A stretch of 39,656 nucleotides of DNA from Kayfunavirus AN17P1. The stretch lies in sequence record OZ035755.1; one strand, written 5' to 3'. The notes under the pieces were generated by a model. That model worked only from the letters and a program-made list of their open reading frames with translations. It made no database searches and was not told the DNA's origin. Both the position numbers and the translations under genes were made by a program. Shown piece after piece: positions 1 to 11,313 of the stretch; positions within the stretch are counted from its first letter, which is position 1, and every line of letters starts with the position of its first letter.

Positions 1-29
1 TACAAAACGATTAAAGGAGGTGGTAAAAC

Positions 30-293
30 ATGACGCAGATGGACTTAGAGAAGTTCCTCTTGATGCTGGATACTGAACGTGCTAGACTCATGCTGCAAGA
101 CCTGCGGGATGACTCTAAGCGTTCACCTCAGCTTTACAACGCCATTGAGAAGCTACTGGCTCGTCACAACTTCGTGCTAAGCAAGGTGTCTGTTGACGAG
201 AAGACGCTCGCTGATATGGAGGCTTTGAACAGGGAGTACGATAAGGTGCTCTCAGCTACTGAGGATAACGACACCGGGTATGGTGTACAGTAA
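30..293 (+). CDS. gene 18: Terminase small subunit / DNA maturation protein A (T7 gp18-like), 87 aa
   Basis: Strong SD AAAGGAGG upstream of ATG; size and position immediately before the spanin pair and terminase large subunit match T7 gene 18 (89 aa). Confidence 0.7.
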   Translation: MTQMDLEKFLLMLDTERARLMLQDLRDDSKRSPQLYNAIEKLLARHNFVLSKVSVDEKTLADMEALNREYDKVLSATEDNDTGYGVQ

Positions 294-346
294 GTGTTAG
301 ACTCAAGGTCATTACTATATGTAGTGGCCTTTATGGTTAACACACA
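294..346 (+). promoter_or_regulatory. Conserved imperfect stem-loop, putative RNase III processing site (R18.5-like)
   Basis: Motif AGACTCAAGGTCATT...GTGGCCTTTATG with outer arms GTGTTA/TTAACAC; near-identical elements at 9451-9492 and 16631-16677; T7 has RNase III sites at the equivalent positions. Confidence 0.4.
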
Positions 347-394
347 CTACGGGCGGAGACGCTACGTGGATTCTGAGAAATGAGGAGGGCAACT

Positions 395-832
395 ATGCTC
401 GAACTTTTACGTAAAGCAATCCCGTGGCTGGTTGCAGGACTCCTGTTCTGTTCTGGCTACTGGGTGGCAGACAATAAGTGGGAGGCGAAGGTAAACAATG
501 AGTACATCACGAAACTTGAGGCACGAGAGAATCAACGGGCTGCTGTCCAAGGTGAAATCAACAAAGTGTCAGCCGAGTGGCAAGACAAGATGTCCGCGCT
601 GGAAGGCTCTACTGATAGGATTATTGCTGACCTTAACCGCGATAACAAGCGGCTGCGCGTCCGAGTCAACACCTCAGGTCTCACCGAGTCAGATGTCAGT
701 AGATGCTTCCCTAATGGTAGAGTCGAACTACACCCAGAAACTTCTAAAAGTCTTATCCGATTAACTCAGGAGGCAGACCTTAAGGAGAAGGCGCTTCAGG
801 ACACAATAAGGAGGCTCCAAGGTGTTAAGTGA
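395..832 (+). CDS. gene 18.5: i-spanin (Rz-like, T7 gp18.5 homolog)
   Basis: Translation MLELLRKAIPWLVAGLLFCSGYW... resembles T7 gp18.5 N-terminus (MLEFLRKLIPW...) as I recall it; N-terminal TM segment; SD GAGGAGG 7 nt upstream of ATG 395 (the track's ATG 380 lies inside the SD). Confidence 0.8.
   Translation: MLELLRKAIPWLVAGLLFCSGYWVADNKWEAKVNNEYITKLEARENQRAAVQGEINKVSAEWQDKMSALEGSTDRIIADLNRDNKRLRVRVNTSGLTESDVSRCFPNGRVELHPETSKSLIRLTQEADLKEKALQDTIRRLQGVK
498..764 (+). CDS. gene 18.7: o-spanin (Rz1-like lipoprotein, T7 gp18.7 homolog) embedded in +1 frame of 18.5
   Basis: 88-aa ORF wholly inside the i-spanin gene in another frame; lipobox-like LTAITSGC followed by Pro/Ser-rich region; same embedded arrangement as T7 18.5/18.7. 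Confidence 0.75.
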   Translation: MSTSRNLRHERINGLLSKVKSTKCQPSGKTRCPRWKALLIGLLLTLTAITSGCASESTPQVSPSQMSVDASLMVESNYTQKLLKVLSD

Positions 833-1259
833 TTACTACAAAGTGGACCCGGCTAGTCCATCCGGTCTGGTCTCCGTTAGGACTGGAAAGCCTGTGGGGA
901 CATTAAGTCGGATGGGATATTGGATAGTACAGACACGAAGTCTAGGCAGTAAGCGGGCCCATCGTGTGATATGGGAACTAACCAATGGTCCTATACCGCA
1001 TGGTATGCAAATAGACCACATCGACAGGAACCCTAGCAATAATACCTTAAGTAACTTACGGCTCGTTACTGCCGCTGAAAACACTTGGAATACTGGTAGC
1101 CATTATGACTCTAAGACAGGAGTGAAGTGCGTTACCCGTCACCAGAATGGTTATAGGATTCAGGTTAAACGCGGGAATGCCTATATGCGAACAACACGTC
1201 CCACTTTAGAGGAGGCTATCGCTGTCCGGGACCTAATGCTGGAGGGACTATATGTCTAA
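822..1259 (+). CDS. HNH homing endonuclease (HNH plus AP2-like DNA-binding region), 145 aa
   Basis: Motif [41 protein letters not shown] typical of phage HNH endonucleases; GTG start with SD AAGGAGG; overlaps the 3' end of 18.5 and the 5' end of terminase; T7 has no gene here. Confidence 0.8.
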
Positions 1260-3018
1260 GAAAACACCCGCTGAAAGACAGGCAGAAATGGTCCAAAGGA
1301 TGAGGGACGACTTCGTGTTCTTCATCTTCGTTCTCTGGAAAGCACTAAGTCTTCCGGTTCCAACCCGCTGCCAGATAGATATGTGTAAGAAGCTGGCTGC
1401 TGGGGATAATCGCCGCTTCATCCTTCAGGCGTTCCGTGGTATTGGCAAGTCGTTTTTGACCTGTGGCTTTGTGGTCTGGAAGCTATGGAATAACCCAGAC
1501 TTGAAGTTCATGATTGTGTCGGCCTCAAAGGAACGAGCCGATGCGAACTCCATCTTCATCAAGCGAATCATCGACCTCATGCCTCAGCTTCGGGAACTCA
1601 AACCTAAGCAGGGGCAGCGAGATGCGGTTATCAGCTTCGACGTTGGACCAGCCAAGCCAGACCACTCACCTTCGGTTAAGTCCGTTGGTATCACTGGTCA
1701 GTTGACTGGTAGTCGTGCTGACATCCTGATTGCCGATGACGTGGAGGTTCCGAACAACTCAGCGACTCAGGCTGCACGAGACCGTCTATCAGAGCTTGTG
1801 AAAGAGTTCGACGCTATCCTGAAGCCGGGAGGTACGATCATCTATCTGGGTACTCCTCAGAACGAGATGACCCTGTACCGTGAGCTGGAAGGTCGTGGGT
1901 ACACCACTACTATCTGGCCCGCTCGTTATCCACGCGACAGGAAGGACTGGCAGTCTTACGGCGACCGTCTGGCTCCTATGCTTCAGGCAGAGCTGGAAGA
2001 GGACCCTGAGTCCTTCTACTGGCGTCCGACTGATGAAGTACGCTTCGATGATACGGACCTGAAGGAACGTGAGCTGTCCTACGGTAAAGCTGGCTTCGCT
2101 CTACAGTTCATGCTTAACCCGAACCTGAGTGATGCCGAGAAGTACCCTCTTAAGCTCCGTGACCTTATCGTAGCCGACTTGGACCCAGCGTCCAGCCCAA
2201 TGGTCTACCAATGGTTGCCGAACCCTCAGAACAAGCGTGAGGACGTTCCTAACGTTGGACTCATGGGTGACTCGTACCACACGTATCAGACTGTAGGTTC
2301 TGCCTTCAGCTCATACACCCAGAAGATTCTGGTCATTGACCCTAGTGGTCGTGGTAAGGATGAAACTGGATATGCGGTACTGTACCAGCTCAACGGCTAC
2401 ATCTTCGCTATGGAAGTTGGTGGCATGCGTGGTGGTTATGAAGACTCTACGCTGGAAGCCTTGGCTAAGATTGGTCGTAAGTGGAAGGTCAACGAGTACG
2501 TCATTGAGGGTAACTTCGGTGATGGTATGTACCTTGAGTTATTCAAGCCTGTAGCGGCCCGTATCCATCCTTCGTCTGTAACTGAAGTGAAGAGTAAGGG
2601 TCAGAAAGAACTCCGCATCTGTGACGTTCTGGAGCCTATCATGGGGTCTCACCGACTTATCGTTAACGCTGCTGCTATAGTCCAAGACTACCAGTCTGCC
2701 TCTGATAAGGATGGTGTTCGTAACCCTATCTACTCTCTCTTCTATCAGATGACACGTATCTCTCGTGAGCGTGGAGCCTTGGCACACGATGACCGACTTG
2801 ATGCGCTGGCTATCGGTGTACAGTTCTTCGTTGAGTCTATGGCTAAGGATGCTAGCAAAGGCGAACGTGAAGTCACTGAGGAATGGCTGGAGGAACAGAT
2901 GGAGAACCCACGGAAAGGCTTCGAGTCCATCCACACTGAGTTCTGGGACAATGGGGTCCGGGTAACTCACGATACGGACGACGAGCTTGGACTAGGGGCA
3001 TACGTTACGTTACACTAG
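1252..3018 (+). CDS. gene 19: Terminase large subunit (T7 gp19 homolog), 588 aa
   Basis: Length and position match T7 gp19 (586 aa); Walker A-like GIGKS and ATPase/nuclease-type motifs (LIADDVEVP); strong SD GGAGGGACTAT before ATG. Confidence 0.95.
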
Positions 3019-3027
3019 CTGAATGAA

Positions 3028-3076
3028 TAACTATAGGTGAAAGCTGCATGAATAAGCAGTTAGTAACCTATAGTTA
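3028..3076. repeat. Perfect 11-bp inverted repeat TAACTATAGGT / ACCTATAGTTA with 27-nt loop
   Basis: Arms at 3028-3038 and 3066-3076 are exact reverse complements; arms contain the promoter core ACTATAGG; lies directly after the terminase stop. Confidence 0.5.
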
Positions 3077-3112
3077 CTACCAGTCTAACATACTGTTTTA
3101 TAAGGAGTTTGG

Positions 3113-3136
3113 ACTTAACTATCACTATAGGGAAGA
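3113..3136 (+). promoter_or_regulatory. Phage RNAP promoter (phiOR-like, right end)
   Basis: TTAACTATCACTATAGGGAAG matches the 11-member consensus CTAAACTATCACTATAGGGA; +1 G at about 3130. Confidence 0.75.
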
Positions 3137-3315
3137 CCCCCGGTTACTTATAGTATTACTGTAGTGAATATACATATGCAGACTTTATTCAAGACCTTAG
3201 GAGGCAGACTCCGAGTTCTTACCTAAGGCTTGCACCGATGGAAGGAGGGTGATATTAATCATAATCCCTCCAATACAGATAGTCACCGACCATAGATACA
3301 GGAGGTATGTAGCAT

Positions 3316-3474
3316 ATGGCAAAGACCAAAGCTGTACTTAAAGCTCTGGCGACCAATCGAGCTACATACAGGTTTCTTGCTGCTGTTCTACTTGCTGCTG
3401 GCGTTACTGCTGGAAGTCAGTGGGTCGGGTGGGTCGAGACTCTCGTATGTTCTCTGGTCTCTCAGTGTAATTAA
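3316..3474 (+). CDS. Small membrane protein, 52 aa (gene 19.5 position)
   Basis: ATG with SD ACAGGAGG; translation MAKTKAVLKALATNRATYRFLAAVLLAAGVTAGSQWVGWVETLVCSLVSQCN has one hydrophobic helix; below the 60-aa track cutoff so read directly from sequence. Confidence 0.45.
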   Translation: MAKTKAVLKALATNRATYRFLAAVLLAAGVTAGSQWVGWVETLVCSLVSQCN

Positions 3475-3510
3475 CGCAATCATGATAACAATCAACGAAA
3501 GGAGGTAGGG

Positions 3511-3579
3511 ATGGACGAGGAGTCTTATGGGCCGTTCTCTGACGAAGATTATCAGACGGAGTGGGAATACGCGCATTGA
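3511..3579 (+). CDS. Very small acidic ORF, 22 aa (MDEESYGPFSDEDYQTEWEYAH)
   Basis: ATG preceded by SD AAAGGAGG at good spacing; no other support. Confidence 0.25.
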   Translation: MDEESYGPFSDEDYQTEWEYAH

Positions 3580-3583
3580 AGAC

Positions 3584-3624
3584 CTAAGGTCAGTTCATAG
3601 CTGACGCTACTCTACTGACCTTAG
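3584..3624. repeat. Inverted repeat CTAAGGTCAGT / ACTGACCTTAG (11-bp stem, 19-nt loop) near the right genome end
   Basis: Exact reverse-complement arms at 3584-3594 and 3614-3624; no downstream U-tract. Confidence 0.45.
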
Positions 3625-3699
3625 CTACTGTAGTCAAGGACTTTAGGTAACACCTTAATAGAAGCTCACTTAGGGTCATCCTACTTATTGGTCTATCCT

Positions 3700-4100
3700 A
3701 GTGTCGCCTGACCTACGGTCCTTGACCTACAGTAGCTGCCACCTACAGTATTCGATGAGTTTTGGACCAAAAGTTTGAGACCACATCTCACAGTTCAAGA
3801 ACCTCAAGTCTCCCCATAGGCCCTCTTTCAGTCCAGACCAAAGGCCCTACCCCAGTCTATCATAAGGTTAGACCGATGGTCAAGACTTCAGGTCAACGAT
3901 AGGTTGTGGCTATGGCTTAGGGAAGGACGATAGGTAGGGACTATTGGTCTGTCTTTGAGTCTCTATCTGTATCAGACCTTGAGTCACTACCTACAGTCTA
4001 ACTACCTACAGTCTAACTACCTACAGTCTAACTACCTACAGTCATCGACCATCGGTAATGCCGCTACCTACAGTCAGAGACCTACGGTTAATAGACACAA
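3700..4100. repeat. Genome terminus region: putative direct terminal repeat flanked by CCTAC(A/G)GT short repeats
   Basis: TCTCACAGTTCAAGAACC...CCCCATAGG at 3786 resembles the T7 (TCTCACAGTGTACGG) and T3 left-end sequences as I recall them; repeated GACCTACGGT / CACCTACAGT motifs on both sides mirror the CCTAAAG arrays flanking the T7 terminal repeat; no CDS. Repeat length cannot be read from a collapsed assembly. Confidence 0.5.
3986..4044. repeat. Tandem array, about 3.9 copies of 15-bp unit ACTACCTACAGTCTA
   Basis: Exact copies at 3986-4000, 4001-4015, 4016-4030 and a partial copy at 4031-4044. Confidence 0.9.
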
Positions 4101-4340
4101 GGCTATAGACTTAAGGTCTAAGACATGTTAGTCAAAGACTACATCCTCTTACACCATGGGGCCGACGATAGCTTAATCAATATTATTTCAAATTACCTAT
4201 TGACTATAGGTCCAGATTATGGCCTAATAGCTTCCGTCAACACGACACGGCAACAACCGGATAGTGAAGACGCCTGGTCATCCCGGTTAAGTAGACAGCC
4301 TGATAAGTCATACGAACAACAGGCAGATGACAGAAAGTAG

Positions 4341-4378
4341 TTGACAAGCAGTAACGATAAGATGTAAGCTGTACCACA
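4341..4378 (+). promoter_or_regulatory. Host sigma70 early promoter candidate (T7 A2/A3-like)
   Basis: Perfect -35 TTGACA (4341-4346), about 18-nt spacer, -10 TAAGCT, then GTACCACAT as in T7 A3 (TACGAT-GTACCACAT) as I recall it; about 200 nt upstream of the first early gene. Confidence 0.5.
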
Positions 4379-4486
4379 TCAAAACAACGGTGACGACCGA
4401 CACTGAAACGGTCTACCTGAAGTCCTCTGACTGAAGGGAATGCTCTTTAACAATCTGGATAAACTCTTAATGTGCGCCGATAGCGA

Positions 4487-4543
4487 CTAACTACAGGGTC
4501 TTTGAGTCTACATCTGAAGGCCCTGACTGATAGTCACTAACAA
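4487..4543 (+). promoter_or_regulatory. Conserved leader element, copy 1 (TAACTACAGGGTC ... CCTGACTGATAGTCACTAA), possible RNase III / translation-initiation leader
   Basis: Shares a 19-nt exact block CCTGACTGATAGTCACTAA and a TAACTACAGG(G)TC block with 4842-4892; ends about 17 nt before the start codon at 4560; small CAGGG/CCCTG stem. Confidence 0.5.
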
Positions 4544-4559
4544 CCTAAGAGGATTCATT

Positions 4560-4838
4560 ATGAGACTGAACAAAGCTACAGCAGAAGCCTTTCGCAAGGA
4601 GCTTGAATCAAGATTATTGTGTGGAGTGGCGGAAGGAGCCGCTCGATATAAAGAGAATGGTCTAACGTTCAAGCGCTTTATGTGGGATTGCTATCACGGA
4701 GTGGGCCATAAAAAGTTGCAGGAAATAATCACCAGCAACAATGCAGAAGTGCAAGTGATAGGAGGATATATGGCTAACGTGAAGGATTCACACATCGAGA
4801 CCATGCTTAAGAATGCACTTAACGATGTAGCCTACTAG
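4560..4838 (+). CDS. Hypothetical early protein, 92 aa; first gene to enter the cell, upstream of ocr
   Basis: SD AAGAGG before ATG; uninterrupted ORF; sits behind a copy of the same leader element as ocr; no recognisable family. Confidence 0.6.
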   Translation: MRLNKATAEAFRKELESRLLCGVAEGAARYKENGLTFKRFMWDCYHGVGHKKLQEIITSNNAEVQVIGGYMANVKDSHIETMLKNALNDVAY

Positions 4839-4841
4839 TGA

Positions 4842-4892
4842 TTAACTACAGGTCGTTAGACTGATAGCGGCCTGACTGATAGTCACTAAAAC
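4842..4892 (+). promoter_or_regulatory. Conserved leader element, copy 2, upstream of ocr
   Basis: Contains CCTGACTGATAGTCACTAA (4871-4889) and TTAACTACAGGTC; paralogous to 4487-4543. Confidence 0.5.
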
Positions 4893-4918
4893 ATACTTAA
4901 CTTTGAGAGGATATAACT

Positions 4919-5251
4919 ATGGAACGTAACGCTAACGCATACTATGAGCTGCTGGCTGCAACCGTTGAAGCATTTAACGAGCGTATTCAGTACGACGAAA
5001 TAGCTGAAGGCGATGACTACCACGATGCGCTGCATGAAGTCGTAGACGGTCAGGTTCCGCACTATTACCACGAGATTTTCACGGTGATGGCTGCTGATGG
5101 TATTGACCATGAGTTTGAAGACTCTGGGCTGATGCCTGATACCAAGGATGTGACGCGTATACTGCAAGCTCGCATCTATGAGGCGCTTTATAACGACGTG
5201 GCTGATAGCTTGGATGTAGTCTGGTTTGAGGCTGAAGAGGGAGACGAGTGA
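4919..5251 (+). CDS. gene 0.3 (ocr): Ocr (T7 gp0.3 homolog), DNA-mimic anti-restriction protein, 110 aa
   Basis: Translation ...[46 protein letters not shown]... is closely similar to T7 Ocr as I recall it ([45 protein letters not shown]); acidic C-terminus. Confidence 0.9.
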
Positions 5252-5406
5252 TGGTAACTTACGGTCTCTGTCAGCATCACGTCACCAACGCCCGGAGTAT
5301 GGTCAAGACCGGGCAATTAAACCACGATGCGACTATGCGTCACCTGAAAGCGGTCTATGAGGGCCACAAGCGCATACACGACAGTTTGCACGCTGAGGAT
5401 AAGTAA
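5251..5406 (+). CDS. gene 0.4: Small early protein, 51 aa, T7 gp0.4-like (FtsZ inhibitor family)
   Basis: ATGA start/stop overlap with ocr; translation [51 protein letters not shown] shares length and YGL...LKxxYExxKxI pattern with T7 gp0.4 as I recall it. Confidence 0.45.
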   Translation: MVTYGLCQHHVTNARSMVKTGQLNHDATMRHLKAVYEGHKRIHDSLHAEDK

Positions 5407-5519
5407 CGTGTATCATAGCCTGACCATAACGCTGACAGGTGGGTACTGAGTGATAGATGAGAGGTCATCGACTGATAGGTGGCCTCAAAGATTACCACTT
5501 GAATTAATAGGAGTTAACT

Positions 5520-5609
5520 ATGAGTGTGGGATATTGGGTCTGCCTAGCGCCAGTTATCTGGATGATAGGCTATGGGTTATACGACTGTATTAAACGGAAA
5601 TCACTATGA
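5520..5609 (+). CDS. Small hydrophobic ORF, 29 aa
   Basis: ATG after TAGGAG; translation MSVGYWVCLAPVIWMIGYGLYDCIKRKSL; stop overlaps the next ORF start. Confidence 0.25.
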   Translation: MSVGYWVCLAPVIWMIGYGLYDCIKRKSL

Positions 5610-5803
5610 GTCTTGCACTATTGATAGCAATAGGCTATGGACTTATCGCCTACGTGCTGGTGAGTGACATTAACAAGGCGCGTAAAGTCTACAAATTCAA
5701 CTATGTACGTCTGGGCCGCTGGACCGTACGTCAACCTAACGGACGATTCATGCGCAACCTAGCGAACGTATGGGATATAGCAACCTTAGGGAGCAAACTG
5801 TAA
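5606..5803 (+). CDS. Early membrane protein, 65 aa
   Basis: N-terminal TM segment (LALLIAIGYGLIAYVLV); position equivalent to the T7 0.5/0.6 region. Confidence 0.45.
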   Translation: MSLALLIAIGYGLIAYVLVSDINKARKVYKFNYVRLGRWTVRQPNGRFMRNLANVWDIATLGSKL

Positions 5804-5853
5804 TGCGCAATACTTGTAGCAAGCGCACTCAAATATCTTCAGGAGAATAAGTA

Positions 5854-6075
5854 ATGAATATAATTAAGGCAGCCACGGAGTCTATTAGCGCCATATTCCT
5901 ACCACGGCAAGAGGTATGTACCTCCCACAAGTTCATACTATCTTGCGTTGTCGGCGACGAGTTTGATGGTTTTGATAAGCTCGTTGTATGTGATTATTGT
6001 GGTCAAGAAGCTATACAGCACTCAAACGGTAAATTCGAACTAATTAACGAGGAAGGGGACGGCGATGGTGAATAA
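5854..6075 (+). CDS. Early Cys-containing protein, 73 aa; N-terminus resembles the start of T7 gp0.7
   Basis: SD CAGGAGAATAAGTA-ATG; N-terminus MNIIKAATESISAIFLP resembles T7 gp0.7 MNITDIMNAIDAIKALP as I recall it; four Cys including CDYC; far too short for a kinase. Confidence 0.45.
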   Translation: MNIIKAATESISAIFLPRQEVCTSHKFILSCVVGDEFDGFDKLVVCDYCGQEAIQHSNGKFELINEEGDGDGE

Positions 6076-6358
6076 CAAAAACAACGTATTTGGATACTTG
6101 GTGACAGGCTACCGACACGGAACCTCAAGTCACACCGCACGTCAACAGCAGGAGCGTGACAGGGTACTGCAAGCAAGACTCCGAGCTGAGGGCCATAAGT
6201 CCGAACTGTTGTGTCTGGCGTATGGTGGACGACCAATCACTGATGATGGTAAACTTCTGGTCTCAGGCTGGAAGGCGATAGACCAACGGTCAACCATCAA
6301 GCACACGACCCATGGTGACTTCAGCCATCTTCACGCTAACCCACTGATATGCAAGTGA
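6065..6358 (+). CDS. Hypothetical early protein, 97 aa
   Basis: ORF overlapping the previous stop; last gene before RNAP; no family recognised. Confidence 0.45.
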   Translation: MVNNKNNVFGYLVTGYRHGTSSHTARQQQERDRVLQARLRAEGHKSELLCLAYGGRPITDDGKLLVSGWKAIDQRSTIKHTTHGDFSHLHANPLICK

Positions 6359-6363
6359 TTCTG

Positions 6364-6387
6364 ACTTAACTATCACTATAGGACTCA
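6364..6387 (+). promoter_or_regulatory. Phage RNAP promoter upstream of the RNAP gene
   Basis: CTTAACTATCACTATAGGACTC fits the consensus; +1 G about 6381, 75 nt before the gene 1 ATG. Confidence 0.65.
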
Positions 6388-6455
6388 AGGTCTAAGACTC
6401 CAAGTGAAAGACCAAAGAGACTTTAAGTGAAAGACTAATAACAAGGACTTTAAGT

Positions 6456-9137
6456 ATGAGCGTCATCTCTATTGACAAACACGACTTCTCTGATGTGTCG
6501 AACGCCATTGAGCCGTTTAACCTGCTGGCTGACCACTACGGGCAAGACCTTGCAGTCAAACAGCTTCAGCTGGAGCACGAGGCATACACTGAAGGCGAGC
6601 GACGTTTCATCAAAAACCTTGAGCGACAGACTGAGCGCGGGGAACTGGCAGACAATCAGGTAGCCAAGCCTTTGATGCAGACTCTGGTCCCTAAGATTGC
6701 GCAAGCCGTCAGGGAGTGGCATGAAGGTCCAGACGGGAAGCTGTCAACCTCTCGTCCGAGCGTAGCGTTCACCATGTTAAGCACTGAAGAGAAGGCCGTC
6801 AAGGACCGCTCTCTTCGCATCTCCTGCGAGTCTGCTGCGGTTATCATACTGAAGGTCATCCTATCCAAGCTGGTCAAACCTGAAGGTATACCGATTACAC
6901 CGATGGCCTCCGCGATAGGTCGCACACTTGAGGATGAAATCCGATTCGGTCGCATTCGTGACAAGGAGAAGGAGCACTTCAAGAAGGCGATAGCTGATAA
7001 CCTGAACAAGAGAGCCGGGGCATCATACAAGAAAGCCTACATGCAAGCGGTCGAGACATCCATGCTGGAGCAAGGCCAACTAGAAGATGCGTGGGGAACT
7101 TGGAGTCCGACCGAGGCTGTCCACGTTGGAATCAAGATGCTGGAGATTGTCATCCAGTCAACACAACTGGTCGAGCTTAAGCGTTACGGTGCTGGCAATG
7201 CAGCGGCTGACGTTGAGATGGTCCACCTGTCAGACTTCTGGGTCAAGAAGATGACACAACGCGGCTTCAGCCTTGCGGGTATCGCTCCAGTCTACCAACC
7301 TTGCGTAGTTCCACCTAAGCCGTGGACTGGTGTCGTAGGCGGTGGGTACTGGGCCAAAGGTCGCAGACCATTACCACTGATTCGCTTAGGGTCTAAGTCT
7401 GCGGTGGCACGTTACGAAGACGTGTATATGCCTGAAGTCTATGACGCTGTTAACATAATCCAGAATACACCTTGGAAAGTGAACAAGAAGGTTCTGGACG
7501 TGGTGAACATGGTCGAGAAGTTGAACAACACGCCTATTGATGACATCCCTCAGATGGAGCCACTGAAGCCTGAAGAATATGCGGGTGAGACTGAAGAGGA
7601 ACTCAAGGCGTGGAAGAAAGCGGCTGCTGGTATCTATCGCCGCGAGAAGGCCAGACAGTCACGCAGATTGTCGCTGAGCTTTATCGTTAACCAAGCGAAC
7701 AAGTTCTCTCAGTTCAAGACCATCTGGTTCCCGTATAACATGGACTGGCGCGGTCGCGTCTACGCTGTGCCGATGTTCAACCCTCAGGGTAACGACATGC
7801 AAAAGGGTCTCCTGACTCTGGCAGTCGGTAAGCCTATTGGTGCTGATGGTTTCAAATGGCTGAAGGTCCACGGTGCAAACTGTGCGGGTGTCGATAAAGT
7901 AACCTTCGAGGAGCGCATCAAGTGGGTGGAAGATAACCACGACAACATCATGGCTACCTCTAAGGCACCGATGGACAGCATTGAGTGGTGGGGAAAGTTA
8001 GACTCTCCGTTCTGCTTCCTAGCGTTCTGCTTCGAGTATGCCGGCGTAATGCATCACGGATTGTCTTACTCCTGCTCGCTGCCGATAGCTTTCGATGGGT
8101 CCTGCTCTGGGATTCAGCACTTTAGCGCGATGCTTCGTGATCACATCGGTGGACATGCAGTAAACCTGACGCCTTCCGGTAAGGTCCAAGACATCTACCG
8201 CATCGTGTCTGACCGCATTGAGGAAGAGCTTAAAGTCCTGCTGGTTAACGGCACGGACAACGAGATGGTAACTCACGAGGACAAGAAAACTGGTGAGATT
8301 ACCGAACGTCTCAAGCTGGGGACACGAGAGCTGGCCCGGCAGTGGCTGACTTACGGTATGTCACGCAAGGTTACTAAGCGCTCAGTCATGACTCTGGCCT
8401 ATGGGTCGAAAGAGTACGGCTTTGCAGACCAAGTTTATGAGGACATCGTGATGCCAGCGATTGACTCAGGGTCTGGCGCTATGTTCACTGAACCAAGCCA
8501 AGCGTCCTGCTTCATGGCTAAGATGATTTGGGAAGCTGTGAGTGTGACCGTAGTTGCTGCGGTTGACGCGATGAAGTGGCTTCAAGGTGCTGCCAAGCTG
8601 CTGGCGGCTGAAGTGAAGGACAAGAAGACTGGAGAAATCCTGAAGCCTTGCCTTCCGGTACACTGGGTCACACCTGATGGGTTCCCGGTCTGGCAGGAAT
8701 ACCGCAAGAAGGATACCACTCGTCTGAACCTGATGTTCTTAGGGTCATTCAACCTTCAGCCTACCGTCAACAAAGGCACGAAGAAGGAGTTGGATAAGCA
8801 CAAGCAGGAGTCAGGAATTAGCCCGAACTTCGTCCACTCACAAGATGGTAGCCATCTCCGCAAGACTGTAGTCCACACTCACCGTAAGTATGGCGTGATG
8901 TCGTTCGCAGTGATTCACGATAGCTTCGGGACCATCCCGGCTGACGCTGAATATCTGTTCCGTGGTGTCCGTGAGACGATGGTCGAGACCTACCGCGATA
9001 ACGATGTGCTGCTTGACTTCTACGAGCAGTTTGAATACCAACTTCATGAGAGCCAGCGCGACAAGTTGCCTGAGCTTCCGAAGAAAGGTAAACTGAATAT
9101 TGAGGACATTCTATCTTCAGACTTTGCATTCGCTTAA
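6456..9137 (+). CDS. gene 1: T7-type single-subunit DNA-dependent RNA polymerase, 893 aa
   Basis: Collinear similarity to T7 RNAP as I recall it (AIWFPYNMDWRGRVYAV, HGANCAGVDK, SPFCFLAFCFEYAG, SCSGIQHFSAMLRD, IHDSFGT, C-terminal FAFA). Confidence 0.97.
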   Translation: MSVISIDKHDFSDVSNAIEPFNLLADHYGQDLAVKQLQLEHEAYTEGERRFIKNLERQTERGELADNQVAKPLMQTLVPKIAQAVREWHEGPDGKLSTSRPSVAFTMLSTEEKAVKDRSLRISCESAAVIILKVILSKLVKPEGIPITPMASAIGRTLEDEIRFGRIRDKEKEHFKKAIADNLNKRAGASYKKAYMQAVETSMLEQGQLEDAWGTWSPTEAVHVGIKMLEIVIQSTQLVELKRYGAGNAAADVEMVHLSDFWVKKMTQRGFSLAGIAPVYQPCVVPPKPWTGVVGGGYWAKGRRPLPLIRLGSKSAVARYEDVYMPEVYDAVNIIQNTPWKVNKKVLDVVNMVEKLNNTPIDDIPQMEPLKPEEYAGETEEELKAWKKAAAGIYRREKARQSRRLSLSFIVNQANKFSQFKTIWFPYNMDWRGRVYAVPMFNPQGNDMQKGLLTLAVGKPIGADGFKWLKVHGANCAGVDKVTFEERIKWVEDNHDNIMATSKAPMDSIEWWGKLDSPFCFLAFCFEYAGVMHHGLSYSCSLPIAFDGSCSGIQHFSAMLRDHIGGHAVNLTPSGKVQDIYRIVSDRIEEELKVLLVNGTDNEMVTHEDKKTGEITERLKLGTRELARQWLTYGMSRKVTKRSVMTLAYGSKEYGFADQVYEDIVMPAIDSGSGAMFTEPSQASCFMAKMIWEAVSVTVVAAVDAMKWLQGAAKLLAAEVKDKKTGEILKPCLPVHWVTPDGFPVWQEYRKKDTTRLNLMFLGSFNLQPTVNKGTKKELDKHKQESGISPNFVHSQDGSHLRKTVVHTHRKYGVMSFAVIHDSFGTIPADAEYLFRGVRETMVETYRDNDVLLDFYEQFEYQLHESQRDKLPELPKKGKLNIEDILSSDFAFA

Positions 9138-9153
9138 TAACAGGAGAGACAAC

Positions 9154-9354
9154 ATGCAATTCGAACACCGTGTATCAAACGTACCTGGTGGTAACAAGGT
9201 CGTAACAGTAACAATGGCGGCTGGCAAGGGTCTATTCAAAGTTACTATGGTCCCGACTGGAACGGCTAAGGCCAAAGGTATCAGCCAGAAGGAGCTGATT
9301 CAGGTAATCCAGTGGTCGCACGAGAAGGCCCTACGGGAAGAGGCAACCAAATGA
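9154..9354 (+). CDS. Hypothetical small protein, 66 aa, inserted after gene 1
   Basis: ATG with SD AGGAGA; translation MQFEHRVSNVPGGNKVVTVTMAAGKGLFKVTMVPTGTAKAKGISQKELIQVIQWSHEKALREEATK; the track ORF 9100-9354 starts inside RNAP and is the same frame. Confidence 0.45.
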   Translation: MQFEHRVSNVPGGNKVVTVTMAAGKGLFKVTMVPTGTAKAKGISQKELIQVIQWSHEKALREEATK

Positions 9355-9428
9355 CAGACCTACAGTTACTGGCCATGTGGCTGGGAGCACTAGCAGTATT
9401 CACTTTAATCCAACGCAGAAGAGGTTAA
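9351..9428 (+). CDS. Small hydrophobic ORF, 25 aa (MTDLQLLAMWLGALAVFTLIQRRRG)
   Basis: ATGA overlap with the previous stop; single hydrophobic helix plus basic tail; no SD of its own, so possibly translationally coupled. Confidence 0.25.
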   Translation: MTDLQLLAMWLGALAVFTLIQRRRG

Positions 9429-9429
9429 C

Positions 9430-9453
9430 CCTAAACTATCACTATAGGATTAG
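9430..9453 (+). promoter_or_regulatory. Phage RNAP promoter (phi1.1-like)
   Basis: CCTAAACTATCACTATAGGATTA; consensus match. Confidence 0.75.
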
Positions 9454-9492
9454 ACTAAAGGTCATGACTCAAAGTCGTGGCCTTCATGATTA
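9451..9492 (+). promoter_or_regulatory. Conserved stem-loop, putative RNase III site (R1.1-like)
   Basis: AAGGTCATGACT / AGTCGTGGCCTT arms (9458-9469, 9473-9484) with two G-U pairs and a 3-nt loop; same family as 294-346 and 16631-16677. Confidence 0.4.
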
Positions 9493-9525
9493 ACCCTAAA
9501 TAAACACTACTGGAGATTTAACCGT

Positions 9526-9705
9526 ATGTATCAGAACACTATCAACTTCGAGCGCATCCGTGAACGTCAGCAGACTGAAGGTTACATCCCGAAGGGCCGT
9601 AAGCTGAACAAGACCAAGCGTGGCGGTGGTATCAAAGGCGCTTTCCGAAACGCTGAAGGTAAAGACTCTCTGGTCAACCAAGAGAAATACTTCGTAGGAG
9701 CATAA
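9526..9705 (+). CDS. gene 1.1: gp1.1-like small basic protein, 59 aa
   Basis: Translation MYQNTINFERIRERQQTEGYIPKGRKLNKTKRGGGIKGAF... contains KGRKLNKTKR, as in T7 gp1.1 as I recall it; just below the 60-aa track cutoff. Confidence 0.6.
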   Translation: MYQNTINFERIRERQQTEGYIPKGRKLNKTKRGGGIKGAFRNAEGKDSLVNQEKYFVGA

Positions 9706-9709
9706 CTCT

Positions 9710-9967
9710 ATGGGCCGACTTTATAGTGGCAACCTCAACGCTTTCAGAGCAGCGTGTAACAAGCTTTATCAGTTAGACTTCTGCGTGATACAGCAGGACT
9801 GGTACGACGCGCATCTTCGGAAAGAGTGCATGAGACTTCAAGTCGAGGACCGAGCTGGTAACATCTTCGCGCTTAAGACCTTCGCACACCGCGATGAAGA
9901 CGTACTGTACAACACTGCAACAGGCTTCATTAACTGTCTCGCTAACCAACTCGACACATGGAGATAA
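9710..9967 (+). CDS. gene 1.2: gp1.2 homolog (host dGTPase Dgt inhibitor), 85 aa
   Basis: MGRLYSGNLNAFRAACNKLYQLDFCVIQQDWYDAHLRKECMRLQVEDRAGN... versus T7 gp1.2 MGRLYSGNLAAFKAATNKLFQLDLAVIYDDWYDAY... as I recall it; identical length. Confidence 0.85.
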   Translation: MGRLYSGNLNAFRAACNKLYQLDFCVIQQDWYDAHLRKECMRLQVEDRAGNIFALKTFAHRDEDVLYNTATGFINCLANQLDTWR

Positions 9968-9971
9968 CACA

Positions 9972-11054
9972 ATGACAACTATTAAAACTAACCCGCACCG
10001 CTCTGTAGATTACTCTGAGTCTGGCGTTAAGAAGGCTTTGGAAGCTGCCGGGTCTCTCGAAGCTGAAGTGAAGTACGATGGTGTCCGGTTGAACCTTCCG
10101 GTATTCCCTACTGGTGAGACTCAATGGTTGAGCCGTGAGTCTAAACCTCTTCCAGCCTTGGAGTGGATGAACTCTGAGTTAGGTAATGCGTGGACCCAAG
10201 CTGACTGGCGATGGTTCCTGCGTCAAGCTGGCTACGAAGGCGTGGGCTTGATGATTGATGGCGAGGTAATGGTCAAAGGCGTGGACTTCAATACCTCCTC
10301 AGGTCTCATTCGAACCAAGTGGCTCAAGCCAAGCAATGAGCACTACGCTGAGTGCTATCCGGGGCGCGGTAAGAAGGTCCCATTCTGGGTATCCCGGTCA
10401 CGACTTCAGGTTGTGGTATATGGCGTTGTCGATATGACAACCATAGCAGACCCGAAAGCAGAAGGTCCTATCCATAGCGTAACCCGCCTGAAGGCTGAAG
10501 CTATCGTCCCTCTCCTCCAGAAATACTTCCCGGAAATCGACTGGGTTCTGTCTGAGTCACACACGGTCTATGACCTTGAGTCGCTCAACTCCCTGTACGA
10601 ACAGAAGCGTCTGGAAGGACATGAGGGTCTGGTAGTCAAGGACCCACTGGGTAAGTACAAGCGTGGCAAGAAGTCTGGCATGTGGAAAATGAAGCCTGAG
10701 GAGACCATCGACGGGACCGTGTGTGGCCTCGTGTGGGGGACTCCTGGTAAGGCTAACGAAGGTAAGGTCATCGGCTTTGAGGTTCTACTGGAGGATGGCA
10801 TGGTGGTCAACGCCTGTGGTCTGACTGAAGAACAGAAGGACGAGTTTACGGCTAAGGTCAAGGAGGACACGCTTGCTGCGGTTGGCATCTTTGCGCCGTA
10901 CGGCATTGGTGGTAACGAACCTTGCTTAGATAACCCATACGAAGGCTGGCAGTGTGAAGTCCTCTTCATGGAGAGGTTCCCTGATGGCTCCCTTCGTCAC
11001 CCCAGCTTCAAGTGCTGGCGTGGAACCGAAGACAACCCAACGGTGAAGTCATGA
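9972..11054 (+). CDS. gene 1.3: ATP-dependent DNA ligase (T7 gp1.3 homolog), 360 aa
   Basis: Start MTTIKTNPHRSVDY... with SD GGAGATAACACA-ATG matches the T7 ligase N-terminus MMNIKTNPF; contains KYDGVR adenylation motif; the track ORF start at 9894 overlaps gene 1.2 and is an upstream in-frame extension. Confidence 0.9.
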   Translation: MTTIKTNPHRSVDYSESGVKKALEAAGSLEAEVKYDGVRLNLPVFPTGETQWLSRESKPLPALEWMNSELGNAWTQADWRWFLRQAGYEGVGLMIDGEVMVKGVDFNTSSGLIRTKWLKPSNEHYAECYPGRGKKVPFWVSRSRLQVVVYGVVDMTTIADPKAEGPIHSVTRLKAEAIVPLLQKYFPEIDWVLSESHTVYDLESLNSLYEQKRLEGHEGLVVKDPLGKYKRGKKSGMWKMKPEETIDGTVCGLVWGTPGKANEGKVIGFEVLLEDGMVVNACGLTEEQKDEFTAKVKEDTLAAVGIFAPYGIGGNEPCLDNPYEGWQCEVLFMERFPDGSLRHPSFKCWRGTEDNPTVKS

Positions 11055-11230
11055 GTACACAACTTTATATCAACATAGCAAGTGGTCAACTCTACGCTGT
11101 GGTAAATGGCGAGCTGTGGTATCGTAAACTCAAGAAGTGGGCCAAGTCCTACTACGATGAAGAGACAATATCAACCATGAGTCATCGCTACCGTAAGGCT
11201 GCTAAGGTGAACAACTTTAAGATGCGTTAA
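11051..11230 (+). CDS. Hypothetical protein, 59 aa (gene 1.4/1.5 position)
   Basis: ATG overlapping the ligase stop (ATGA); translation MSTQLYINIASGQLYAVVNGELWYRKLKKWAKSYYDEETISTMSHRYRKAAKVNNFKMR. Confidence 0.4.
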   Translation: MSTQLYINIASGQLYAVVNGELWYRKLKKWAKSYYDEETISTMSHRYRKAAKVNNFKMR

Positions 11231-11234
11231 CGTC

Positions 11235-11273
11235 AACCCAGTGGTCTTAGGACTGCTGGGTTTCTTTGCTTCT
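11235..11273 (+). terminator. Putative rho-independent early terminator (TE-like)
   Basis: Stem AACCCAG / CTGGGTT (11235-11241, 11256-11262) followed by TCTTTGCTTCT; lies after the ligase block, where T7 has TE. Confidence 0.4.
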
Positions 11274-11289: not shown

Positions 11290-11313
11290 CCTAAGCTATC
11301 ACTATAGGACAAC
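11290..11313 (+). promoter_or_regulatory. Phage RNAP promoter
   Basis: CCTAAGCTATCACTATAGGACAA; consensus match. Confidence 0.7.

Follow-up and report, generated by a model that had tools for sequence, protein, structure and literature searches.

An overlapping pair of small reading frames between the RNA polymerase gene and the phi1.1-equivalent promoter of Kayfunavirus phages

In bacteriophage T7, promoter phi1.1A lies only 26 nt past the end of the RNA polymerase gene (gene 1), and there is no open reading frame (ORF) between them. In T3, the interval between gene 1 and phi1.1, R1.1 and gene 1.1 is occupied by phi1.05, the primary origin and gene 1.05, with promoter and origin directly after gene 1; R1.1 is annotated directly after phi1.1. 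The early genes of the T7 group repeatedly encode precise inhibitors of host proteins (Ocr, gp0.4, gp0.7, gp1.2, gp2 and gp5.9).

The DNA analysed here (the window) is a 39,656-nt sequence of Kayfunavirus AN17P1 (OZ035755.1). Positions 9100-9530 match Kayfunavirus T147P5 at 100% identity and share 91-93% identity with many phages of Salmonella, Escherichia and other enterobacteria that are classed as Kayfunavirus; by these identities, the source phage belongs to Kayfunavirus, the K1F-like branch of the T7 group. The local order is gene 1, ORF-A, ORF-B, a phage promoter, a hairpin, a gene 1.1 homologue, gene 1.2, ligase, and a terminator-like hairpin (Table 1). From the promoter onwards the order of gene 1.1 (PF08200), gene 1.2 and ligase is shared with T7, which has neither ORF-A nor ORF-B. 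Kayfunavirus resembles T3 in carrying extra coding sequence ahead of phi1.1, R1.1 and gene 1.1, although ORF-A and ORF-B stand directly after gene 1, where T3 has a promoter and an origin. Many kayfunaviruses also have a true gene 1.05 homologue right after ORF-B, whereas the window has none.

A sequence-only reading of the window had described a 66-aa ORF with a good Shine-Dalgarno sequence (SD), a coupled 25-aa hydrophobic ORF and a promoter at 9430, and had contrasted this with T7, where the phi1.1 promoters directly follow gene 1. The T7 comparison is correct, both ORFs and the promoter lie where they had been placed, and the SD of ORF-A is an AGGAG at the distance listed in Table 1. The same reading took the two ORFs to have been inserted at this site. 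They are, however, present in all 42 Kayfunavirus loci that are readable here and in about 175-220 phage records, and are thus a feature of the genus rather than a local insertion.

Gene order and transcription signals

Table 1. Coordinates of the features discussed, from the predicted promoter upstream of gene 1 to the hairpin after the ligase gene.
Feature	Position in window	Strand	Basis
Predicted phage promoter upstream of gene 1, TTAACTATCACTATAGGA, -17 to +6, +1 = G6381	6364-6386	+	One mismatch to the 18-nt core
Gene 1, T7-type single-subunit RNA polymerase, 893 aa	6456-9137	+	ORF; RNA polymerase annotation in all relatives
AGGAG Shine-Dalgarno sequence of ORF-A	9142-9146	+	Sequence; 7 nt upstream of the ATG
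ORF-A, 66-aa basic, predicted soluble protein, PHROG 8082	9154-9354	+	Profile match, tblastn, pN/pS, AF2 model
GAGG within ORF-A, putative weak internal SD for ORF-B	9340-9343	+	7 nt upstream of the ORF-B start
ORF-B, 25-aa hydrophobic peptide, MTDLQLLAMWLGALAVFTLIQRRRG	9351-9428	+	Frame and overlap kept in relatives, pN/pS
Predicted phage promoter, phi1.1 equivalent, CCTAAACTATCACTATAGGATTA, -17 to +6, +1 = G9447	9430-9452	+	Exact core match
Predicted 12-bp hairpin with G-U pairs, 5' end of the phi1.1 transcript	9458-9484	+	MFE -19.3 kcal/mol, z = -2.7
Gene 1.1 homologue, 59 aa	9526-9705	+	Pfam PF08200 Phage_1_1, E = 6e-11
Intrinsic-terminator-like hairpin and T run after the ligase gene	11235-11262	+	Terminator prediction

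The 18-nt promoter core TAAACTATCACTATAGGA has 11 matches in the window with three or fewer mismatches, all of them on the + strand, against 0.03 expected by chance. The exact match that begins one base past the ORF-B stop is annotated as a promoter at the same site in CR44b and EcoDS1. The sequence-only reading had called it the first class II promoter; a predicted phage promoter nevertheless precedes gene 1 by 70 nt, at a place where CR44b has an annotated promoter too. No core match falls between 6383 and 9432, and terminator prediction gave no terminator from gene 1 to 11235. As the stretch from the gene 1 stop to 9430 contains no separate promoter or terminator, ORF-A and ORF-B would be co-transcribed with the polymerase gene, and here the earlier proposal of co-expression stands. 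Its stricter form, that the pair is transcribed only by read-through from early transcripts, conflicts with the predicted promoter upstream of gene 1. This promoter can head a transcription unit of gene 1, ORF-A and ORF-B, so that all three could be transcribed by the phage polymerase as well, and gene 1 would be positively autoregulated by its own product. T7 is not known to have a phage promoter just ahead of gene 1.

A sigma-70 scan of the early region returned only weak 9-of-12 matches, at chance level. Since the host early promoters are not found by so simple a scan, early transcription of this region rests on the analogy with T7. No minus-strand sigma-70-like site was reported within 9300-9450.

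The hairpin that follows the phi1.1-equivalent promoter is kept in CR44b and EcoDS1 with small changes, and its position makes it a candidate RNase III site like R1.1 of T3. The strong hairpin after the ligase gene lies where T7 has its early terminator TE, and is likely to be the end of the host-polymerase early transcripts. A further phage promoter is found at 11292-11309, within 30 nt of this terminator-like hairpin.

Two minor observations concern the promoters. The sequence TTAACCCTAAA is present twice, at 9425-9435 and at 9490-9500, and a degenerate string resembling a promoter, TTAACCCTAAATAAACACTACTGGAGA, begins with the second copy and has the gene 1.1 SD at its end. This string may be what is left of a second promoter comparable to phi1.1B of T7. 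Compared with the physical genome ends, the window is a circular permutation: its gene 1 begins at 6456 and that of K1F at 2566, so the first ~3.9 kb of the window correspond to right-end genes, and the promoter at 3115-3132 is probably a right-end promoter.

Conservation of the two reading frames

Short ORFs are common by chance in such DNA (6 kb contain 99 that reach 20 aa or more), and ORF-A and ORF-B taken as bare ORFs do not rise above this level, so the case for genes rests on comparison with relatives. By tblastn, ORF-A was found in 220 phage records and ORF-B in 175; ORF-A is represented by more than 150 (156) protein clusters, many from contigs about 40 kb in length. When 1.8 billion representatives were searched exhaustively with an HMM, only ~9 true small homologues came up, and the long multi-stretch matches of that search look like repeat or low-complexity matches. 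Comparison with related genomes, a check that had been proposed from the sequence, finds both reading frames conserved. The pN/pS ratio of ORF-A is 0.33 in frame and 1.3 and 1.8 in the shifted frames (31 distinct nucleotide versions), and that of ORF-B is 0.27 in frame and 1.19 and 0.96 shifted (28 distinct nucleotide versions). By this codon measure, both frames are under purifying selection.

ORF-A matches the profile of phrog_8082 over its whole length (E = 5.2e-31; residues 1-66 on profile positions 1-66 of 66) and is a member of this family, which is without a function in PHROGs. The PHROG 8082 members of K1F, CR44b, GA2A, SFPH2 and other phages lie directly after gene 1 and have 66-71 aa, and ORF-A does not differ from them. 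We hold with great confidence that ORF-A is a real gene. It is annotated nearly everywhere as 'hypothetical protein', and the gene names it has been given are inconsistent ('gp1.1' in K1F, AM084414; '1.05' in CR44b). Neither of the identities implied by these names was borne out. ORF-A is not T3 gp1.05, as it has no match to PF25755, which is matched instead by a 156-aa ORF of EcoDS1 (84.6 bits against a cut-off of 27) that is absent from the window; nor is it T7 gp1.1, as it has no match to PF08200, which is matched instead by the 59-aa ORF downstream of the promoter (43 bits against a cut-off of 21).

The AF2 model of ORF-A (pLDDT 93, pTM 0.76) has three strands (residues 3-10, 13-22 and 25-34), a short helix (37-40) and a long helix (45-65). 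Invariant residues include H5, G12, G13, V17-T18-V19, G24, K25, K29, T35, K39, K46 and E57, and the protein is basic, with ten Lys/Arg and five Asp/Glu counted from the sequence. Homology and structure searches, also proposed in the sequence-only reading, succeeded in part: ORF-A could be placed in PHROG 8082, whereas ORF-B was assigned to no family and no informative structural match was obtained for ORF-A. Specifically, a sequence-profile search of the PDB with the ORF-A alignment gave no match, Foldseek of the model against the PDB gave none below E = 0.7, and a BFVD structure search returned uncharacterised proteins only. Neither ORF has a Pfam match at E <= 1.

The position of ORF-B and its overlap with the ORF-A stop are kept in 42 of 42 relatives with readable sequence there (40 extracted loci together with L047 and L046). 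It has 25 codons in 41 of these loci and 26 in one, the divergent 40-kb contig L046. The stop codon may be TAA, TAG or TGA, always at the same position. All 28 nucleotide versions have stops in the +1 frame and 10 of them also in the +2 frame, and variable sites are concentrated in third codon positions (19 of 25, against 20 of 50 first and second positions; 31 versions, Fisher p = 0.004). In a comparison of the window with the metagenomic relative L037, the nucleotide identity is 74% and 15 codons differ, 12 of them synonymously and 3 non-synonymously. In K1F, ORF-B is 96% identical to that of the window although ORF-A is only 42% identical, and overall the ORF-B amino acids are the more conserved of the two (pN 0.08, against 0.18 for ORF-A). 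The 26-aa version in L046 (MTDNQLWLTLWSAFLITFIVFQRRRG) begins with GTG and retains the C-terminal QRRRG, encoded by different Arg and Gly codons. One part of the nucleotide conservation is not due to the peptide, as the 3' third of ORF-B carries the SD of gene 1.05 in some relatives (see below). The ORF-B region shows no sign of an RNA element: it has no match in Rfam and folds more weakly than shuffled sequence (z = +2.4). ORF-B gave nothing below E = 0.1 against PHROGs, Pfam, NCBIfam and PADLOC and no tblastn match to plasmids, and no mention of the peptide was found in the literature searched. We consider it highly probable that ORF-B is a real protein-coding gene.

The peptide has a polar N-terminus (MTD), a 17-residue hydrophobic stretch and a QRRRG tail with three Arg at the C-terminus; the tail is conserved, L046 included. 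The hydrophobic character noted from the sequence is evident in a mean Kyte-Doolittle hydropathy of 2.1 over residues 4-20. Small residues stand at positions 8 and 12 in both alleles (A8, G/A12), giving a small-xxx-small face. A single hydrophobic stretch with flanking charge is what is expected of a single-pass inner-membrane peptide, with 17 residues at the short end of the range. Under the positive-inside rule, by which the charged flank sets membrane orientation, the QRRRG tail leads to the prediction of one membrane helix with the C-terminus in the cytoplasm; we lean towards ORF-B being membrane-inserted. In this it is like the small single-pass membrane proteins of bacteria and phages, which have fewer than 50 aa, one hydrophobic helix and a positive cytoplasmic end, and which, like ORF-B, are often missed by gene callers. 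The likeness is one of kind and not of homologous family, as ORF-B has no sequence relationship to the described proteins and its insertion is predicted.

The ATG of ORF-B overlaps the ORF-A stop as ATGA, and among relatives this overlap is ATGA in the 40 extracted loci and L047 and GTGA in L046. A start/stop overlap conserved in this way supports ORF-A and ORF-B as a translationally coupled pair, as had been read from the window. The GAGG upstream of the ORF-B start is conserved only partly among relatives, as judged from the upstream 12-mers. The alleles of ORF-A and ORF-B occur in several combinations among relatives, so recombination appears to separate the two genes, and such free reassortment lends no support to an allele-specific physical complex. 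Coupling suggests that the two products work together; reassortment gives this no support.

Two layouts are found downstream of ORF-B. In the short layout (the window, K1F, CR44b, ST56), the promoter begins one or two bases past the ORF-B stop. In the long layout (EcoDS1, GA2A, SFPH2, Pisces and others), the ORF-B stop is followed after 3-4 nt by the start of a 155-160 aa homologue of T3 gene 1.05 (PF25755), with its SD, AGAAGAGG, inside ORF-B, and the promoter overlaps the 3' end of this gene, as in T3. About half of the relatives carry the gene 1.05 homologue, of 155-164 aa in this wider set (L007 783-1253, L002 1835-2302 and L046 1786-2280), and there is none in the window at 9428-9430. Short and long layouts are identical up to ...GGTTAACCCTA, and CTA is found again at the other boundary (...CCTA/...CTA microhomology), which suggests simple gain or loss by short homology.

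Natural deletions also occur here. P0133, a 47-aa metagenomic protein, joins the first ~26 residues of ORF-A in frame to the ~21 C-terminal residues of gp1.1; the deletion behind it has taken out the remainder of ORF-A, all of ORF-B, the promoter and the beginning of gene 1.1. In Enterobacter phage 03_vB_Eclo_IJM (L018, 776-790), gene 1.1 starts 4-5 nt past the ORF-B stop and the promoter and hairpin are missing, in a record that has a split RNA polymerase gene and frameshift errors and may therefore contain sequencing errors here. These natural deletions indicate that the pair, though conserved, is probably not essential.

An extra small ORF of 76-86 aa is present between gene 1 and ORF-A in some relatives: L007 248-478 (EcoDS1, phrog_28104), L043 1-78 and L046 1227-1487. 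The interval is a hotspot for small accessory genes.

Possible roles of the pair

The explanation that we regard as likely overall is that ORF-A and ORF-B are two genuine genes forming a conserved, coupled, Kayfunavirus-specific pair at the 3' end of the gene 1 unit, with a role in host takeover. Two other readings deny the ORF-B peptide a function, and the codon evidence argues against both. ORF-B might be no gene at all, its 78 bases being kept as DNA signals such as the flank of phi1.1, a Shine-Dalgarno sequence for the gene that follows or part of a replication origin. The final 24 nt (TTAATCCAACGCAGAAGAGGTTAA) are indeed nearly invariant among close relatives, contain the gene 1.05 SD in the long type and abut the promoter in the short type, and 20 of 21 annotated records have no ORF-B call. 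Signals of this kind at the 3' end do not account for the first 18 codons, where pS is 0.38 and pN 0.11 while the shifted frames are near 1 and contain stops, nor for a stop codon that changes identity and never position, a frame and overlap kept in 42 of 42 loci, or the recoding of QRRRG in L046 with the frame kept despite an extra codon and a GTG start; we find this reading highly improbable. ORF-B might instead be translated as a relay, passing ribosomes to gene 1.05 or covering the end of the mRNA, with a peptide that has no function of its own. Its invariant stop/start overlap upstream, the gap of only 3-4 nt to the gene 1.05 start in the long type with the SD inside ORF-B, and the way in which gene 1.1 directly follows ORF-B in L018 are all in keeping with such a relay. 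However, the amino acids of ORF-B are conserved beyond those of ORF-A, the hydrophobic helix and QRRRG outlast the divergence of L046, and ORF-B is still intact in the short type (the window and roughly half of its relatives), which has no gene before the promoter to relay to. A pure relay is thus very unlikely.

The remaining alternatives accept the peptide sequence and differ on how it is made or what it does. As ORF-B overlaps the end of ORF-A and is read in the -1 frame with respect to it, a programmed -1 frameshift could join the two into one 90-residue protein that the hydrophobic C-terminal tail would anchor in the membrane. The junction (ACCAAATGA in the window, CACCAGTGA in L046) lacks a slippery heptamer, there is no stimulatory structure in a region less structured than shuffled sequence, and every relative keeps a start codon exactly at the overlap (ATG; GTG in L046), which is the signature of termination and reinitiation. 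The missing slippery site and the conserved start together argue against a fusion, to which we give hardly any credence. Alternatively, ORF-B could be a membrane-damaging peptide, similar to type I toxins, that serves to shut off the host or exclude superinfecting phages and acts without ORF-A. In size, predicted single hydrophobic helix and charged end ORF-B appears to resemble small membrane toxins, and coupling to an upstream ORF would hold its dose low; but ORF-B has no match in Pfam, NCBIfam, PADLOC or PHROGs and no plasmid homologue, and a peptide that depolarised the membrane early would work against the phage itself, whose genome entry and replication depend on an energised host. Taken as a sub-case, a toxin seems to us decidedly unlikely.

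Returning to the coupled host-takeover pair, we envisage that ORF-A and ORF-B would first be expressed from early transcripts of the host polymerase and later at higher levels from the predicted promoter upstream of gene 1. Ribosomes ending ORF-A would reinitiate at the overlapping AUG, so that output of the 25-aa peptide would be tied to that of ORF-A and probably be lower; reinitiation would in this way link the dose of a membrane-inserting peptide to ORF-A and probably limit it. ORF-B would form a single inner-membrane helix, L4-I20, with the acidic/polar N-terminus outside, the QRRRG tail in the cytoplasm and the small-xxx-small face (A8, G/A12) free for helix packing, and ORF-A would be a small basic cytoplasmic protein of three strands and two helices. 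Like the majority of small early proteins in the T7 group, the pair would most likely act against some component of the host while the cell is taken over, with ORF-B acting at the membrane, together with ORF-A or independently, and with the pair dispensable under some conditions. Our best guess is a non-essential host-takeover module that includes a membrane micropeptide.

A more specific proposal, tentative and on balance unlikely, is that ORF-B represents an undescribed family of micropeptides that bind and disable a conserved enterobacterial membrane protein by way of the small-xxx-small face and QRRRG. Candidate targets would be membrane-associated factors of abortive infection or exclusion and components of transport or division, and ORF-A would be a cytoplasmic partner or a second inhibitor supplied at a fixed ratio. 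With 25 residues that are better conserved than its neighbours, ORF-B is a cheap and tractable candidate for another host-protein inhibitor, in a genus with members in therapeutic use (K1F, Salmonella Typhi phages). In other respects the locus is ordinary: variable small accessory ORFs in the interval from gene 1 to gene 1.1 are normal for T7 relatives, and ORF-A and ORF-B are a normal genus-wide accessory gene pair of the K1F-like phages.

Annotation of ORF-B in related phages

The modestly new point of this comparison is that the 25-codon ORF-B appears, from its sequence conservation, to be a genuine, strongly conserved and almost universally unannotated micropeptide gene. It is called in one of the 21 annotated records inspected, as GA2A_08A (ALP47775.1). 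GA2A_08A and ORF-B of the window are alike in having 25 codons and an ATGA overlap with the upstream gene, and 19 of 25 residues are identical; they differ in that GA2A_08A is the other main allele (KWL...AFL...Y, against QLL...GAL...F in the window) and is followed by a gene 1.05 homologue, where the window has a promoter.

Elsewhere the DNA of ORF-B has been annotated in other ways. In EPr2 and 22664UKE3-2, a 38-aa GTG-started ORF in the wrong frame is called in its place; in phi1_146013 and SFP20, the next gene is over-extended upstream through ORF-B, giving an N-terminally over-extended gene 1.05. Wrong-frame calls of these two kinds run across ORF-B and the promoter in L012 (727-843), L043 (327-443), L010 (727-1242) and L044 (327-675). 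The frame used in these wrong calls has no coding signature, being the shifted frame with pN/pS 0.96 and stops in 10 of 28 versions. Correction of the missing and wrong-frame ORF-B annotations would be useful for phage engineering at the junction of gene 1 and gene 1.1. Gene 1 has been affected by automated annotation as well, the T7-type RNA polymerase being mislabelled 'N4-like RNA polymerase' in PP079212, PQ336901, NC_047808 and other records.
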